DNA from: a virus
Taxonomy: Duplodnaviria; Caudoviricetes
Reading direction: 5' to 3' (one strand)
IMG/VR virus record: IMGVR_UViG_3300043447_000250
Coordinates: 1-64,000 of that record
Length of the DNA stretch: 64,000 bases
Part shown: positions 8,501 through 63,719 of the stretch, piece after piece
Position numbering within the stretch: the stretch's first letter is position 1
How the letters are laid out: every line of letters starts with the position of its first letter
The notes under the pieces: generated by a model
Told to the model about the DNA's origin: nothing
Database searches by the model: none
What the model saw: the letters and a program-made list of their open reading frames with translations, nothing else
Translations under genes and position numbers: made by a program

Positions 8501-11500
8501 TCAGTTTGCACACGTAGCAGATAGGCTAGAAGGAGAAACAACAACAAGGCCTGTAACTTTAAGAAAGTATAGAGATGCAACAGGTGGTACTCCAGGAGAA
8601 GTAGAGTTAGCAAGACGTGCAGCAGCAGGTGAAGAAATTAGGCCTGGAGATACGGTATCTTCAAAGGAAGAGTTAGATTCATGGGTTAGAGAAAAGATTG
8701 ATTTAGAGTCACAGAATGAACTTGCAGATGCTGTTGATCAGCAAATTGAAAATGCAAAAACAAAAGCAAAGGTTAAGTCTCCGTCAGAAAGAACAAGAGA
8801 ACTTGGCAAAAACATTGCAGATGGACTTAAGGTTGGAATGGAAGAGGGTGAAGCAGGGGTAAGAGCCCAGTCAGACAAACTTACAGATGCTGCAATCCCA
8901 TCCGCAGCACAAACACAGGCCAAGGTTGATAGAATGGACCTGGGCAACAAGGCCTTCTATGATGACCTAAAGACTCCAGATACTCAAGATCAAAGACAGG
9001 TCCTTAAGTCAATAGATAGACAAAACAGAAAACTTGGAGTAGGTCGCAATGTTGTTGTGCCACAAGATCCTGTAAGTGGAAATGTTAGTCCATCTTCAGC
9101 AAACATTTCTGTAACAAATAATAAAACAATTATTAACCAGGCAGCCGAAGTTGCTGCAAAAGCACAGGTTGATGCATCTAACGCCGAAAAGGTTGCAGCA
9201 GATTTAAGAATAAAAGCAGCGAAGTGGTCGGAAGTTGCAGCACGTGAGTCTGGCAAGAATGCGTACACCGCTGACAATGCAAAAGAACTTGAAAAGAGAG
9301 CAAGTCAAGCAGAACAGAGAGCAGCAGAATTAAGAATTAAGGCTGCTGAAGAGCAAGCAAGAGCAGCATCAATTGCAAGAGAAGATGGCAGCGATGGTTC
9401 GATTGAGGCTGAGGTTGCAAAGGAAAAGGCAAATGAGGCAGAGAAAAAAGCAGCAGAGGCTAGAATCAAAGCAGCAGAAGCAGAGCAAAAAGCAGCGGAA
9501 GAAAGAAAATTACGTGCAGAGCAGGGGCTTGAAACTGCAGAAGATCCAGTTAAAATTACAGAATCAATTAAAAAGGAAGAAGAGTTAGTCGCTAATGGAA
9601 CACAAGAGAAGGGCGACTTATTAAGAAGAAGTGTCGCAGGGTCAGAAGATGTGGCAGACTCAACTGTACTAGTTGCAGATCAGACTTCAGACCTCGCTGA
9701 TGCAACACAAGAAGCATTAAATACTCAACTAGAAAGCAATGACAACCTTGTTACTTCTGCAGAATTAACAGATGTAACTGCTGCAAACCTTGGAGATGTT
9801 CTTCAAGCAACAGATCAGACAGGCTTGGCGCAACAAGATCTTGCAGAATCTTCAAATGAAATTGCAAAAACCAACGACGACATCTTAAAACTAAAGCAAG
9901 AACAGCGTGACAAACTTAAGAAGTACAATGCAGAAGCAGCAGCACGAGCAGCAGCAGAAGGTGCAATCCCAGAGGCATCTCAAACAAATGGCAAGACTGG
10001 AGTGCCTTCAACAGTCCTTAGTTCTACTGATGCATATGAGGAAGCAATGGGATGGTTGCCTGGTACTCATGGACCAGATGATCCAGGCTCAGATGGCTAT
10101 ACAAAAGATAAAAAGGGAAGACTTTTGTTTGACCCAGAGACTGGTCAACCAACAACATTAAAAGAAAAGGCTCTTAAGCAAAAAGCAAGAGGCCTCCGTC
10201 GTGAAAAGGTATCCAAGTTTTCTGGAAAGGTTTCTGGTGGTCTTGGTACTGCAGCCATGGTTTCTGGTATGGTCGGCGCTCCTCCACAAGTTACAGCAGC
10301 ACTTGGTGGCGCAGCCACTGTTGCTCAGTTTGCACCAATGATTGCAGGTCTTGGTCCAATTGGAATGGCAGTAGCAGGTGTCGCAGCAGTTGGAGTAGGA
10401 CTTTATGCTTTCAATAAGCACCTTCAAGGATCACAAGATGCTCAGGCAAAGTTTGTTCGTGAAACATCTGCATCAACAAAGAAGATGGCAGAAATCGGGG
10501 CAATTACTGGTAAAGTCGGAGCATCTGAAATTATGGCTAAGAGAAGAGCCACAGGAACATCTAAGGATTATATTGCCAGAGAAAGACAAGGATCTCAATT
10601 TGGAGACACATTCTTACAGTCTGATGTAGGAAAGAATATGTCAAAGATTCTTCAAAAGAATATTGAAAAGAGTGGCGCTAAAGAAGCAGTTAAGGTTTTT
10701 GGAGCAGAACTTGCTGCATATGTTCAAGATGGTGTTTTAACTGCAGAGCAAGCACAGAGCATTGCTCAACAAATTGGAATTAATTTTAAGGACACAAAAT
10801 TAGGAATCAATGTTGATGCAGAAATCTCCGCCTTAATTGGTCCAAATGGAGAAGATCTTAAGAAGGATCCTATTGTTGTAGCAACAAGATTAGTAACAAC
10901 TGCTGAGAATAGATCTCAAAGATCTTTGGCAAATATGAAGGCAGCACAAGCCGACGGCCACTGGGGTTCTACTGAGGCTGCAGATCTAGCAGCAACTGAT
11001 GCAGCAGCAGTTCAAATGGCTCAAATGCAAGCAGATGCTGTTGCTAAGAAGTTCGATGATGAAATTAGAGCGCTAGAAACTCAACTTGCCCAAACAAAGA
11101 ATAAAGAAAAGCAAGTTAAGTTAGAAAAAGAATTGAGTGAACTTAAGACAAAGGCAAATACTGCAGAAATTCAAATGAATAATCTCGTTGCAGATTCTGT
11201 AGATAATGCTGTTAATCGTTTCAAAGATAACATTCAGTATGAGACCACGTATATAGATGGTTTAACTCTTGGGTTGTCAAAACTTTGGGGTGGCGGAAAT
11301 CAGCGTGAAGCAGGCTATATGCGAGGACTCTCTGGAGCAGTAACAGATAAGTATGCAAACACAGAGCAAGCAACGATGGCACAAACCGTACAAGACAGAT
11401 TGGCAAAATATAGTGACGGTGGAGCATTCCTTGGACTAGGAACAGATAACTATACTGAGGCTGGATTTGCTGGAGGTAAGGAGGCACAAAACTTTGAAGT

Positions 11501-60790: not shown

Positions 60791-60794
60791 CTTG

Positions 60795-60866
60795 CGTCCC
60801 TGATAGGATTCGAACCTATGACCTACACCTTAGAAGGGTGTCACTCTTCCGCTGAGTTACAGAGAC
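60795..60866 (-). tRNA. tRNA-Arg(UCU)
   Basis: Cloverleaf folded by hand; anticodon loop CT-TCT-AA; TTCGAAT. Confidence 0.9.
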
Positions 60867-60870
60867 CTTG

Positions 60871-60944
60871 TACACCAGGTAGGACTTGAACCTACGATAA
60901 CCGAATTATGAGTTCGGGGCCTTAACCAACTTGGCTACTGGTGC
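60871..60944 (-). tRNA. tRNA with CAU anticodon (elongator Met or Ile2)
   Basis: Loop CT-CAT-AA; no initiator GGG/CCC anticodon stem. Confidence 0.85.
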
Positions 60945-60960
60945 TTATTAAGTTTTATTG

Positions 60961-61031
60961 CTCTCCCCCCTGGATTCGAACCAGGATTGCCAGTGCCAAA
61001 AACTGGAGTCCTACCGTTGGACGAAGGGAGA
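60961..61031 (-). tRNA. tRNA-Gln(UUG)
   Basis: Loop TT-TTG-GC; U1-A72; G73. Confidence 0.9.
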
Positions 61032-61042
61032 TAACCTTCCTG

Positions 61043-62197
61043 TTAGGGAAGAATCTGGAATGACGTAGTGGTTACCTTAGACTCACTCCAAATATTGTTT
61101 CCACCTACAGATGCAGATAAACTACAAACTCCAGGTGCAATAAACTTTATCAACTTGCCCTGGATCTGGCAAGTCAAAGGTGTTGTAGATGTTACAACTG
61201 GTGCAATCGTAAAACCAACTACTGGAGCCTTTGATGATGCATAAAGATATGCATTCCAACTAGGTCCACCTGTTGCACTCCATACAGCCATTGAGTATGT
61301 TTTTGCAAATCCACTAAAACTAATAGATTGTGCAAACTTTGCTTGCATTGAGTAGGAAAGGTTGGTTGCTGATGGAACAATCTTTGGATAGGTAAGTGGA
61401 TCAACAAATTCTGTCGAACAGGTGTATGAGTTCTTATTAATAGTTACCCCAAGTGCTGCTGCTTCTCCTGCATCTGCAGTTCTATTCCAACAGGCTGTTG
61501 AGGGGCTTCCACCGCTCATAAAGACTGGTGCCTTGATTGCACTAATTCCTGTCGAGCCAGTTGTTGAGATGTATGTCCACTTATCAGCAGAGTTACAACC
61601 GTATGCGTTGCATGATGCAACATTGACTACATAAAGAGTGCTTGGTTTTAGACCTGTTGCTGAAAAGGTAGTATCCAAAGATACTGAATCAACAGCCACT
61701 GGTCCTGGGTCACCATTTGCCTGTGACTCCCAAACATTTACACGGTACCCATAAAGCGAAGCACCACCATCATTTGTATTAGGAACCCAAGCAATGTCAA
61801 CAGATGTATCTGACTTAGCAACTGCAAGTGGTCGCTGAGGTGCGTAAGGAATGGATGCAGCCTTAACTGGATTAGATGGTACAGATGCAATTCCAATTCC
61901 ACCAGCAGAGTTTACAGTTACAGTAAAAGTATAAGTATTTACAAAGCCTAGTTGTGCTGTTGCAAACACACATTTTACGTTTGTAGCACCAGACGCTGTA
62001 CAGATCTGTCCTGTATTTGAAGTAACAGTATAAGACTTAATACCTTTGGTATCTGATGGCAATGTCCATCCAACCATGTATCCAAGATCTACACGATAGT
62101 ATGCACTCACGCCAGTTACAGTTCTAGATTCAGCAGCCTCTGCTGGATAGACTCCAATAGATAGCAAAGTAGCCAATATCAAAAAAATCTTTTTCAT
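61043..62197 (-). CDS. Secreted fibronectin type III domain protein
   Basis: Signal peptide ending AEA; two FN3 repeats (W..P...Y.V...TGLKPSTLYVVNVAS.N). Confidence 0.8.
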   Translation of the reverse strand: MKKIFLILATLLSIGVYPAEAAESRTVTGVSAYYRVDLGYMVGWTLPSDTKGIKSYTVTSNTGQICTASGATNVKCVFATAQLGFVNTYTFTVTVNSAGGIGIASVPSNPVKAASIPYAPQRPLAVAKSDTSVDIAWVPNTNDGGASLYGYRVNVWESQANGDPGPVAVDSVSLDTTFSATGLKPSTLYVVNVASCNAYGCNSADKWTYISTTGSTGISAIKAPVFMSGGSPSTACWNRTADAGEAAALGVTINKNSYTCSTEFVDPLTYPKIVPSATNLSYSMQAKFAQSISFSGFAKTYSMAVWSATGGPSWNAYLYASSKAPVVGFTIAPVVTSTTPLTCQIQGKLIKFIAPGVCSLSASVGGNNIWSESKVTTTSFQILP

Positions 62198-62229
62198 ATG
62201 TTTTTTCCTTTTTTTAGTAGTATGTATTA

Positions 62230-62258
62230 AGTATACATCCTTGAAGTGTGATTGTCAA
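62230..62258 (-). promoter_or_regulatory. Sigma70-type promoter
   Basis: TTGACA-17 nt-TATACT on the - strand. Confidence 0.75.
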
Positions 62259-62261
62259 ATA

Positions 62262-62666
62262 CTAAACAGCAAAACTATCTGAAACTTCTTGAGAATATCT
62301 ATCTATAATATTAAGCAAGTGTGTGCTAGTCCCAGGATAAAACTGATTAAAAAAATCTTTATAGCGACCAAAAAGTAATAAAGACCCTGAAAACTTAGCA
62401 AAGTATTCCATATCTGGAACAAAGAACCAGTCTCTCAAATGATTAGATAACTTTTCTAGCACCTGTCTGTTTCTTATATCCTCTATATCAACATTTTCAC
62501 GAACAAGTTCTACTAGGTCATTCATAATCTCAGTAGCCTCACCAGACATAGTTATCCAGTCCTGCCTTGAATACTGATTTATTCTTTCTTTTGCTTCAAC
62601 TACAAATTTGTCATCTGGCTCATTGGCCTTCCAGTCAATCCACAAAGACATACAAGATATATTCAT
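62262..62666 (-). CDS. Stand-alone TipAS-like domain protein (leaderless)
   Basis: True start is probably ATG 62666 (TGGTATAAT-6-ATG); YSRQDW..EATEIMNDL...H..WFF...RYKDFFNQFYPG pattern. Confidence 0.55.
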   Translation of the reverse strand: MNISCMSLWIDWKANEPDDKFVVEAKERINQYSRQDWITMSGEATEIMNDLVELVRENVDIEDIRNRQVLEKLSNHLRDWFFVPDMEYFAKFSGSLLLFGRYKDFFNQFYPGTSTHLLNIIDRYSQEVSDSFAV

Positions 62667-62689
62667 TAAGCAATTATACCAACAATTAG

Positions 62690-62761
62690 TAGCCCCAACG
62701 GGAATCGAACCCGTCTTGCCAGATTGAAAATCTGGAGTCCTAACCGATAGACGATAGGGCC
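62690..62761 (-). tRNA. tRNA-Glu(UUC)
   Basis: Loop TT-TTC-AA; canonical T arm. Confidence 0.9.
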
Positions 62762-62765
62762 TTAG

Positions 62766-62845
62766 TCCGTTATCTTGGAATCGAACCAAGCATGCTATTA
62801 GCGGGGGATTTACAGTCCCCTGTCCCACCTTGGAACATATAACGG
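62766..62845 (-). tRNA. tRNA-Tyr(GUA), atypical
   Basis: Loop CT-GTA-AA, long variable arm, C1-G72, unusual D arm. Confidence 0.75.
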
Positions 62846-62849
62846 AAAG

Positions 62850-62932
62850 CGGAAATAATAGGATTCGAACCTATGGATCTTGCGATCTACGATTTAGCAA
62901 ACCGTTGCATTCGGCCTCTCTGCCATATTTCC
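62850..62932 (-). tRNA. tRNA-Ser(GCU)
   Basis: Loop TT-GCT-AA, long variable arm, G73. Confidence 0.9.
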
Positions 62933-62937
62933 ATTTG

Positions 62938-63010
62938 CTGGGGATGCAGGCCTCGATCCTGCGACTTGCGAATTAACAGTTCGCCACTCTACCAACTGAG
63001 TTAATCCCCA
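62938..63010 (-). tRNA. tRNA-Asn(GUU)
   Basis: Loop CT-GTT-AA; T loop ATCGAGG. Confidence 0.88.
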
Positions 63011-63067
63011 TAGAGTATAAAGTATAACATGAAAAGTAAGTCTAGGAACAGACCAACCCTGATGTCG

Positions 63068-63141
63068 TGCTTCTCACAGGAGTTGAACCTGTAACACCCA
63101 GATCCTAAATCTGGTGCCTCTACCAATTGGGCTAGAGAAGC
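63068..63141 (-). tRNA. tRNA-Leu(UAG), short variable loop
   Basis: Loop TT-TAG-GA; 5-nt variable region; A73. Confidence 0.85.
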
Positions 63142-63144
63142 AAT

Positions 63145-63312
63145 GTAAGCGGGGATTGACTAATTCCCCCTTACTGACTCTATACTAAATATCCTACGAG
63201 TAGTAGCAACCATGGACACACTCGTTCCTGCGGTAAGGTTAGTACCGTTGCTAGATTTCAGTCTAGTCCCTACACCGTAATAACGAATACGATAACGAGT
63301 GTTAGTCACTAC
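63145..63312 (-). ncRNA. Unidentified structured RNA inside the tRNA array
   Basis: Two stacked 9-bp helices closing a junction with three hairpins, plus a 3' hairpin; no ORF in the track. Confidence 0.6.
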
Positions 63313-63316
63313 ACTG

Positions 63317-63387
63317 CAGGCTCTCTAGGAGTCGAACCTAGGCTTACCGCTTTGGAGACGGTAGTGCTTCCGTAACACTTAGAACCT
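63317..63387 (-). tRNA. tRNA-Trp(CCA)
   Basis: Loop CT-CCA-AA; G73. Confidence 0.88.
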
Positions 63388-63388
63388 G

Positions 63389-63462
63389 TGGAGCGAGTGA
63401 CCAGAATCGAACTGGCACAACCAACTTGGAAGGATGGTGCACTACCATTATGCAACACTCGC
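63389..63462 (-). tRNA. tRNA-Gly(UCC), CCA encoded
   Basis: Loop CT-TCC-AA; U73-CCA. Confidence 0.9.
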
Positions 63463-63485
63463 AATTACTCTATTTAATTATACTG

Positions 63486-63558
63486 TACCCGAAGTGAGAT
63501 TCGAACTCACGCTTGGTAAATTTTAAGTCTACTGCCTCTACCGCTGGGCTATTCGGGC
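63486..63558 (-). tRNA. tRNA-Leu(UAA), short variable loop
   Basis: Loop CT-TAA-AA; 5-nt variable region; A73. Confidence 0.85.
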
Positions 63559-63563
63559 AAACC

Positions 63564-63719
63564 TTAGTTTGCTAACAAGCCAATTAAAAAGCCAATTAAA
63601 AACATTGATGTTCCAATAACCCAGTGATATCTACGCATAAGATAATCTTTAACAATCTTATCTTGAATAGATTCTGGAACCTCTACGTACTTATCTCTAC
63701 CAACTTCAATCTCATACAT
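63564..63719 (-). CDS. Small membrane protein (51 aa; not in the ORF track)
   Basis: SD AGGAGG; C-terminal hydrophobic helix. Confidence 0.55.
   Translation of the reverse strand: MYEIEVGRDKYVEVPESIQDKIVKDYLMRRYHWVIGTSMFLIGFLIGLLAN

Follow-up and report, generated by a model that had tools for sequence, protein, structure and literature searches.

A 174-nt gap in the tRNA array of an uncultured phage encodes a conserved and structured RNA of a new family, probably released by processing as a discrete molecule, as an earlier note on this DNA had proposed from the letters alone. We refer to it as element A. It lies between tRNA-Trp and tRNA-Leu(UAG), as delimited by ARAGORN and Rfam, on the strand of the tRNA genes and within the window, which denotes the whole 64,000-nucleotide stretch of viral DNA that was analysed. 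Sixteen copies of the element, that of the window included, were found in uncultured viral contigs. Their comparison reveals a conserved fold with six hairpins and at least one pseudoknot, which differs from the multi-helix junction computed for the window sequence.

Genomic location of element A

The window belongs to a 91-kb IMG/VR virus record, which is estimated to be 83% complete. Its minus-strand array has eight tRNA genes at 62689-63558 and three further ones at 60794-61031, called by ARAGORN in agreement with Rfam, and a twelfth tRNA gene of the phage is located at G000:C1:73200-73274. The eight tRNAs within 62600-63700 score 29-61 bits with the Rfam tRNA model. In all 12 genes (window 60794-63558 and G000:C1:73200-73274), N73-C is followed by a non-C base, C74 being the only part of the CCA end that is encoded. 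Since this holds for twelve genes out of twelve, the C at the upstream border of the gap is the tRNA's own, and element A begins at position 75. The CCA-adding enzyme (PF01743) was not found in the 83%-complete genome. The spacers between tRNAs in these arrays are mostly 1-4 nt long, which, together with tRNA genes encoding C74 only, suggests an array built for RNase P-driven dicing. The last hairpin of element A ends 2-5 nt ahead of the next tRNA. The coordinates of the element, its parts and its neighbors are collected in Table 1.

Promoter-like sites were called at 63848-63820 and 62258-62230, both with a TATACT -10 box. The 56-nt spacer between tRNA-Leu(UAG) and tRNA-Asn (63011-63066, minus strand) contains GTTATACTTTATACT, which is similar to the TATACT -10 boxes and may be an internal promoter, one uncalled by the scan and without a -35 box. 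The 22-nt spacer between tRNA-Leu(UAA) and tRNA-Gly (63463-63484, minus strand) begins with AGUAUA and contains AUAGAGUAA. It loosely echoes the 5' end of element A (AGUGUAG) and the AUAGAGUCAGUAA block, and a spacer of equal length is present in L050, one of the related viral loci (designated by L numbers). This likeness could be a deletion scar or chance.

Table 1. Coordinates of element A, its structural parts, the flanking tRNA genes and the copies of element B. Positions are those of the window unless a locus is named.
Feature	Position	Strand	Remarks
Element A, whole	63142-63315	-	174 nt, from C74 of tRNA-Trp to +1 of tRNA-Leu(UAG)
tRNA-Trp(CCA), upstream neighbor	63316-63387	-	Ends N73-C74, CCA not encoded
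tRNA-Leu(UAG), downstream neighbor	63067-63141	-	ARAGORN and Rfam
S1, 5' strand AGUGUAGUGACUAACACUCGU	63295-63315	-	Positions 2-12 invariant in the family
H1, UAUCGUA/UACGGUG, loop UUCGUUAU	63273-63294	-	Two-sided changes in 4 of 6 pairs; 98.9% paired
H2, CUAGA/UCUAG, loop CUGAAA	63251-63266	-	Hand parse, all stems canonical
H3, CGGUA/UACCG, conserved 7-nt loop CUAACCU	63231-63247	-	Two-sided changes in 5 of 5 pairs; 97.3% paired
H4, GGA/UCC, 9-nt loop ACGAGUGUG	63214-63228	-	Two-sided changes in 3 of 3 pairs
H5, CUAC/GUAG, loop UACUC	63194-63206	-	100% paired
H6, 3' hairpin, 10 bp with bulged G, loop AUUAGUCAA	63145-63174	-	Two-sided changes in 7 of 10 pairs; 100% paired
PK1 5' strand, UAACC in the H3 loop	63237-63241	-	C/U covaries with G/A of GGUUG
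PK1 3' strand, GGUUG	63207-63211	-	Covaries with the H3 loop
PK2 5' strand, UGACUAA, putative partner of the H6 loop	63302-63308	-	Conservation, not compensatory change
GAGU in invariant AGAGUC	63177-63180	-	Candidate PK3 partner of H5 loop ACUC, or else of S1 ACUC
Element B copy	L048:10963-11132
Element B copy	L047:911-1079	-
Element B copy	L053:787-956	-
Element B copy	L056:15-184
Element B copy	L052:10860-11028	-
Element B copy	L055:~9066-9234
Element B copy	L005:1540-1713
Element B copy	L061:8709-8860

Homologues and distribution

The first homologues came from a search with the 5'-terminal 25 nt of tRNA-Leu(UAG), which occur without mismatch in ten contigs; five of these carry an obviously homologous insert of 174-180 nt. 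Three more pattern scans on invariant blocks brought the family to 16 copies (15 of them distinct), 174-181 nt in length, in 16 uncultured viral contigs with one copy per contig. A covariance model of the family, R1, was run over 480 kb of loci and returned exactly these 16 copies at 127-205 bits, the element in the window scoring 188.3 bits (E 4.5e-57). Of 24 related virus records, 15 contain a single R1 match each, and one of these 15 is a complete genome of 113 kb that has terminal repeats. The nearest cultured kin, judged by DnaE at 55% identity, are Streptomyces phages of or near Stanwilliamsviridae, and R1 has no match in three such phages, BillNye, Blueeyedbeauty, and Ankus.

Wider searches for element A gave no match with blastn against 50,697 cultured-phage records, none in two scans of GTDB species-representative genomes with the invariant motifs, and none among viral sequences with an exact 19-mer of the element. 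The 3' 24-mer of tRNA-Trp likewise has no viral match, and no relatives of a 130-aa neighbor protein were found. The neighboring fn3 gene led to 4 viral and 41 metagenome loci, which hold no homologue of element A because tRNA arrays differ even at 60-70% identity in the fn3 protein; these relatives carry different, smaller tRNA sets than the window.

The 5' junction is the same in 16 of 16 copies: the upstream tRNA ends with N73-C and is directly followed by (A/G)GUGUAG. The flanking genes are not the same. They are Trp-Leu, Leu-Ser, Leu-Val, Asn-Glu, Trp-Ser, Glu-Gly, Gly-Asp, and Asn followed by an ORF, and the downstream neighbor is not a tRNA in L063 and L064. The carriers are uncultured siphovirus-like phages, in which element A is a single-copy module of tRNA arrays.

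Conserved fold of element A

The copies were aligned with MAFFT and by fitting to the model (A4). Alignments A1 and A2 contain a series of long invariant blocks, namely the 5' GUGUAGUGACU, UGUAGG, the H3 loop CUAACCU, GUUGCU..UACUCG.AGG, AGAGUC, and the H6 loop UAGUC, and the first 12 nt of the element are almost invariant across the copies. The stems of the hairpins between these blocks, on the other hand, differ completely from copy to copy. Parsing by hand gave six hairpins, H1 to H6, in every copy. The stem of H2 has just 2-3 bp in several copies while its loop (C/U)GAA is kept in 14 of 15, and register shifts account for its being only 66% paired in the covariance-model alignment. The three-base-pair stem of H4 occurs as GGA/UCC, GAG/CUC, AAG/CUU, GGG/CCC, GAC/GUC, and GCC/GGC. 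The middle pair of H5 is A-U in 12 copies, G-C in two, and C-G in one. The loop sequence UAGUC of H6 is conserved in 14 of 15 copies.

In A4, an alignment that leans towards the structure fitted to it, two-sided changes are seen in 24 of 33 pairs, and the paired cells amount to 93.9%, as compared with 74.7% for shuffled alignments (none of 500 reached the observed value) and 31-53% with slid partners. The plain MAFFT alignment, evaluated for H3, H5, H6, and the candidate pseudoknots, gives 99.0% paired against 90.5% shuffled and 30-45% slid, with 11 pairs changing on both sides. A mutual-information scan that assumes no structure places pairs of H1, H3, H5, H6, and PK1 at the top. RNAalifold on the raw MAFFT alignment recovers P1 (see below), H3, and H6, and it misses H1, H2, and H4 because those stems are misaligned. 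Two further pairings were tried and rejected. A terminal helix between 5' GUGU and 3' ACAU is incompatible with A170 and C171 forming the base of H6, as confirmed by an inserted A-U pair in L062, and pairing of UGUAGG with the 3' strand of H6 or with the H3 loop is ruled out by covariation or mismatches. Comparison of the copies thus shows a fold of six hairpins plus an H-type pseudoknot, PK1.

Every complementarity listed in the earlier note is present in the window sequence where it had been placed. Its three junction hairpins (AUCGUA/UACGGU, CUAGA/UCUAG, and CGGUA/UACCG) correspond to H1, H2, and H3, which are conserved and covarying, and its 3' hairpin is H6, likewise conserved and with two-sided changes in most of its pairs. 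The suggestion that G-U pairs favor the minus strand is also borne out. The U-G pair closing H1 is kept in 14 of 15 copies, a U-G pair in PK1 is invariant, and one position of H6 has a G-U pair in 8 copies. These pairs place the RNA on the tRNA-sense (minus) strand and exclude the opposite strand. The search for conserved, covarying homologues that had been proposed as a check has a positive outcome, with its 16 copies and 24 of 33 pairs changing on both sides.

The same data bear on the reading that the gap is non-functional as an RNA and consists of degenerate tRNA genes, the scar of a mobile element, or a gene for a small protein. Its length is roughly that of two tRNAs, it contains a 49-codon ORF with a GTG start, and HNH endonuclease genes invade related arrays (L005). 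However, the coding reading was rejected, as the ORF is interrupted by in-frame stops in most homologues, and there is neither a match to the tRNA model at E<=10 nor an ARAGORN call. Invariant blocks together with compensatory changes over 15 diverged copies indicate purifying selection on an RNA fold. We regard a non-functional gap as highly improbable, the covariation having refuted it, and the earlier claim of a discrete, structured and non-coding RNA on the tRNA strand is upheld by the 15 copies besides that of the window and by the broken ORF.

Pseudoknots and competing folds

PK1 joins the H3 loop and GGUUG as an H-type pseudoknot with 1-nt connecting loops. The second C of UAACC and the first G of GGUUG are C-G in 11 copies and U-A in 4, without exception. 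On a tree built without those two columns, three independent concordant switches from C-G to U-A are found and no single-change intermediate; a sign test on the three switches gives p = 0.25, their number being too small for significance. The covariation nevertheless shows PK1 as part of the common fold.

Two further pseudoknots, PK2 and PK3, have the same geometry as PK1. In PK2, which connects the two far ends of element A, the H6 loop UAGUCA is complementary to the 5' UGACUA in 14 of 15 copies, with 97.8% of cells paired, in line with the loop pairing that the earlier note had drawn for its 3' hairpin. L063 adds a G-C pair to this helix, an A-to-G change in L067 keeps a G-U pair, and there is a mismatch in L057 and L062. 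In PK3, the H5 loop ACUC and GAGU are invariant and 100% complementary. As PK2 and PK3 are almost invariant, both are treated as putative pairings. A second long-range pairing of the note, UACUAA/UUAGUA, is not conserved because it falls in a variable linker.

The minimum free energy fold of the minus strand is a different one and coincides with that drawn in the earlier note. It consists of P1, P2, the hairpins, and the 3' hairpin at -51 kcal/mol (z = -2.1, an energy matched by 8 of 200 shuffled sequences). The plus strand has a similar z of -2.5, so that thermodynamics alone decides nothing and the comparative evidence is decisive. For the nested covariation model, the window sequence gives -31 kcal/mol, to which the pseudoknot duplexes would add about -11 kcal/mol. 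P1 (GUAGUGACU/GGUUGCUAC), which the earlier note had drawn as stacking on P2, stands as a complementarity, with 98.7% of cells, but not as a covarying helix, as none of its pairs varies on both sides. The 3' strand of P1 has other covarying partners: its GGUUG goes with the H3 loop, and its CUNC goes with GNAG in the local hairpin H5. P1 therefore excludes both covarying helices. P2, described there as closing the junction, fails as a general helix. It pairs in 48% of cells and does better than shuffles only in the window, L050, L049, and L051, being confined to the window and its three close relatives. In the window's lineage, P2 can form between the H4 loop and CACUCG of S1. The local 3-bp H4 covaries in place of P2. 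The multi-helix junction with P1 and P2 is thus probably not the conserved fold, as far as covariation tells, and P1 plus P2 could be an alternative conformer in the window, where it is the computed optimum.

Two exclusive folds raise the question of regulation in cis, in which element A would act on downstream tRNAs or genes as a riboswitch, for example, or by signaling termination or antitermination. P1 and PK1 plus H5 are mutually exclusive, nearly all substitutions seen fit either fold, as could be the case in a switch, and a pseudoknotted fold with invariant junction nucleotides resembles an aptamer. Yet transitions opposite G or U always keep wobble pairing, and dual compatibility is thus weak evidence. 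The downstream neighbor moreover varies freely, with one ORF and five kinds of tRNA in this place, no U-tract follows H6, no terminator-like site was called there, and no conserved expression platform is seen. Cis-regulation of this kind is very unlikely.

Comparison with known RNAs

A search of Rfam 15 with the 1.1-kb segment 62600-63700 at E<=10, the check that had been suggested for this locus, gave no match in element A. The absence of a T-loop claimed earlier agrees with the lack of any ARAGORN call in 63142-63315 and of any RF00005 match at E<=10, by which a tRNA or pseudo-tRNA is rejected. A bacterial Y RNA was considered as well. No match to YrlA (RF02553) is present in element A. Neither the window's genome nor any of five related records, of which one is 100% complete, encodes TROVE (PF05731), and the window's genome lacks RtcB as well.

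Theta ribozymes are minimal HDV-like ribozymes with a nested double pseudoknot (P1-P2-P3-P1'-P4-P2') and the catalytic C in J4/2, and they lie within 5 nt of phage tRNA 3' ends (PMC10879173). Element A resembles them in being structured, pseudoknotted, and directly at a phage tRNA 3' end, but it is 174-181 nt long and without an Rfam HDV-like match. No Rfam ribozyme family matches at E<=10. We also threaded alignment A2 manually onto the HDV topology. The one P2-like pair available, ACUC/GAGU, comes after a variable linker without a conserved C, and in the window the linker before the candidate P2 3' strand lacks C altogether. The threading further requires P1, in conflict with the covarying PK1 and H5. 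The statement that no HDV or theta core could be fitted is hence corroborated.

The precedent of theta ribozymes nonetheless raises the question of a cis-acting element for tRNA 3'-end processing, in which element A would be a new ribozyme that cleaves itself at its 5' edge, or a guide for RNase P or RNase Z, and would free the upstream tRNA. The element abuts N73-C74 in all 16 copies, its downstream neighbor need not be a tRNA (L063 and L064), its first 12 nt hardly vary, and its fold is compact and multiply pseudoknotted. Against this stand the missing Rfam ribozyme and the failed HDV threading, and the other tRNAs do with 1-4-nt spacers while one tRNA per genome has an element A. Such a role is quite unlikely.

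In phage T4, two small stable RNAs are annotated in the layout tRNA-Arg, 1 nt, rnaD, 6 nt, rnaC. Both rnaC (species 1, 139 nt) and rnaD (species 2, 119 nt) are, like element A, non-coding, encoded on the tRNA strand, and of similar size, and rnaD starts 1 nt after a tRNA just as element A abuts one. Element A thus has the position typical of the T4 RNAs, being in a tRNA cluster, on the tRNA strand, and directly next to a tRNA. The stability and processing of the T4 RNAs are documented, also in the record annotation, and are predicted for element A. We know of no function established for rnaC or rnaD. Homology was rejected, since R1 with filters off gives at most 3.3 bits across the T4 cluster.

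The manA RNA motif (RF01745; Weinberg et al., 2010, PMC2864571) is the second comparison. It is about 185-190 nt long, multi-hairpin, and pseudoknotted, and it occupies a slot between tRNAs as element A does, but it differs from element A in helix order and conserved nucleotides. No match to manA was obtained at E<=10 in 62600-63700, the gathering score being 55.2 bits, and R1 in turn matches no manA copy and no copy of element B (below). The search was sensitive enough, as manA was found in L048 (10702-10886, plus strand, Gly-manA-Asp) at 74.7 bits and in L053 (1033-1213, minus strand, Asn-manA-Asp) at 65 bits. Both loci share the 5' 25-mer of the window phage's tRNA-Leu(UAG). The likening of the position to T4 RNA C/D and to manA is accordingly supported by the T4 cluster layout and by manA in tRNA slots of these two loci.

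Widespread in marine phages, manA RNAs of <200 nt are reported to form RNA-only cages of 8, 10, and 60 copies through kissing loops and GNRA-receptor contacts (preprint, 10.64898/2026.07.01.735769), whereas element A is likened to them by slot and fold type only. By analogy, element A could be a self-assembling RNA in which UGACUA/UAGUCA and the GAA-containing H2 loop serve as intermolecular contacts for homo-oligomers or cages, as in manA, ROOL, and GOLLD. Its genomic niche is shared with manA in related phages. Covariation cannot separate intramolecular from intermolecular pairing in a homo-oligomer, and PK2 joins far ends of the molecule. However, the argument is one of analogy, with no homology to manA. 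The 1-nt and 0-1-nt loops of PK1-PK3 suit ordinary intramolecular H-type pseudoknots, and a palindromic kissing loop is lacking. We consider self-assembly unlikely.

A second uncatalogued RNA family, element B, was found in the same arrays. Its 8 copies are 152-174 nt long and mostly adjoin the 3' end of tRNA-Asp or tRNA-Gly. Of 42 pairs in the RNAalifold prediction, 18 have two-sided changes. Element B has no Rfam match and no detectable homology with element A, although both occur in one array in L047 and L061. It is absent from the window's genome.

Other gaps in related arrays

Many further non-tRNA gaps of 91-309 nt are present in the related arrays. They include Val-136 nt-Ser and Ser-92 nt-Gln in L051, Ser-91 nt-Gln in L054, Glu-129 nt-next tRNA in L057 and L061, Leu-119 nt-Ser in L060, Ser-193 nt-Arg and Met-309 nt-Arg in L066, and Asn-285 nt-Ile in L067. 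The 91/92-nt Ser-Gln insert is common to L051 and L054. No Rfam family reached its gathering score in the gap-bearing loci scanned, and none appeared at E<=1 in L051. The tRNA array of L005 contains an HNH-endonuclease-like ORF (L005:895-1368). The stretch from tRNA-Thr to tRNA-Met is conserved between L004 and L005, and in L005 it includes an odd 82-nt 'tRNA-Gln(CUG)' call by ARAGORN.

Proposed model for the production of element A

Most likely, in keeping with established tRNA-processing biology and the T4 precedent, element A is cut from the tRNA transcript as a discrete RNA by host tRNA-processing enzymes. The promoter-like site at 63848-63820 would drive transcription of the whole array, tRNAs and element A together. 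An RNase P cut at +1 of tRNA-Leu would set the 3' end of element A and leave a 3-nt tail, and the 5' end would be freed by an enzyme of the RNase Z or RNase E type that cleaves behind N73/C74 of tRNA-Trp, which has no encoded CCA. The compact knotted RNA would then persist and act in trans as an RNA particle. Element A would thereby correspond in function to T4 rnaC/rnaD and to manA in related phages, and it may self-associate via its conserved complementary loops. That element A represents a new catalytic or self-organizing class of RNA tied to tRNA maturation, either a ribozyme at its 5' edge or a manA-like multimer, is possible but doubtful. If true, phage tRNA arrays would be a general production line for such RNA particles.

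Implications

Orphan structured RNAs within phage tRNA clusters are a known kind. The family and the fold of element A are new with respect to Rfam 15, 50,697 phage records, and a limited literature search. Phage tRNA arrays are usually annotated as tRNAs and spacers, to which element A adds a well-supported, multiply knotted RNA family. manA was reportedly first classified as a cis-regulatory 5'-UTR or riboswitch element, and its occurrence in tRNA-flanked slots argues against that original view. At least manA, element A, and element B would be interchangeable modules in one phage lineage, sized by the tRNA-processing machinery, and such modules point to a guild of trans-acting RNAs made in step with the phage tRNAs.
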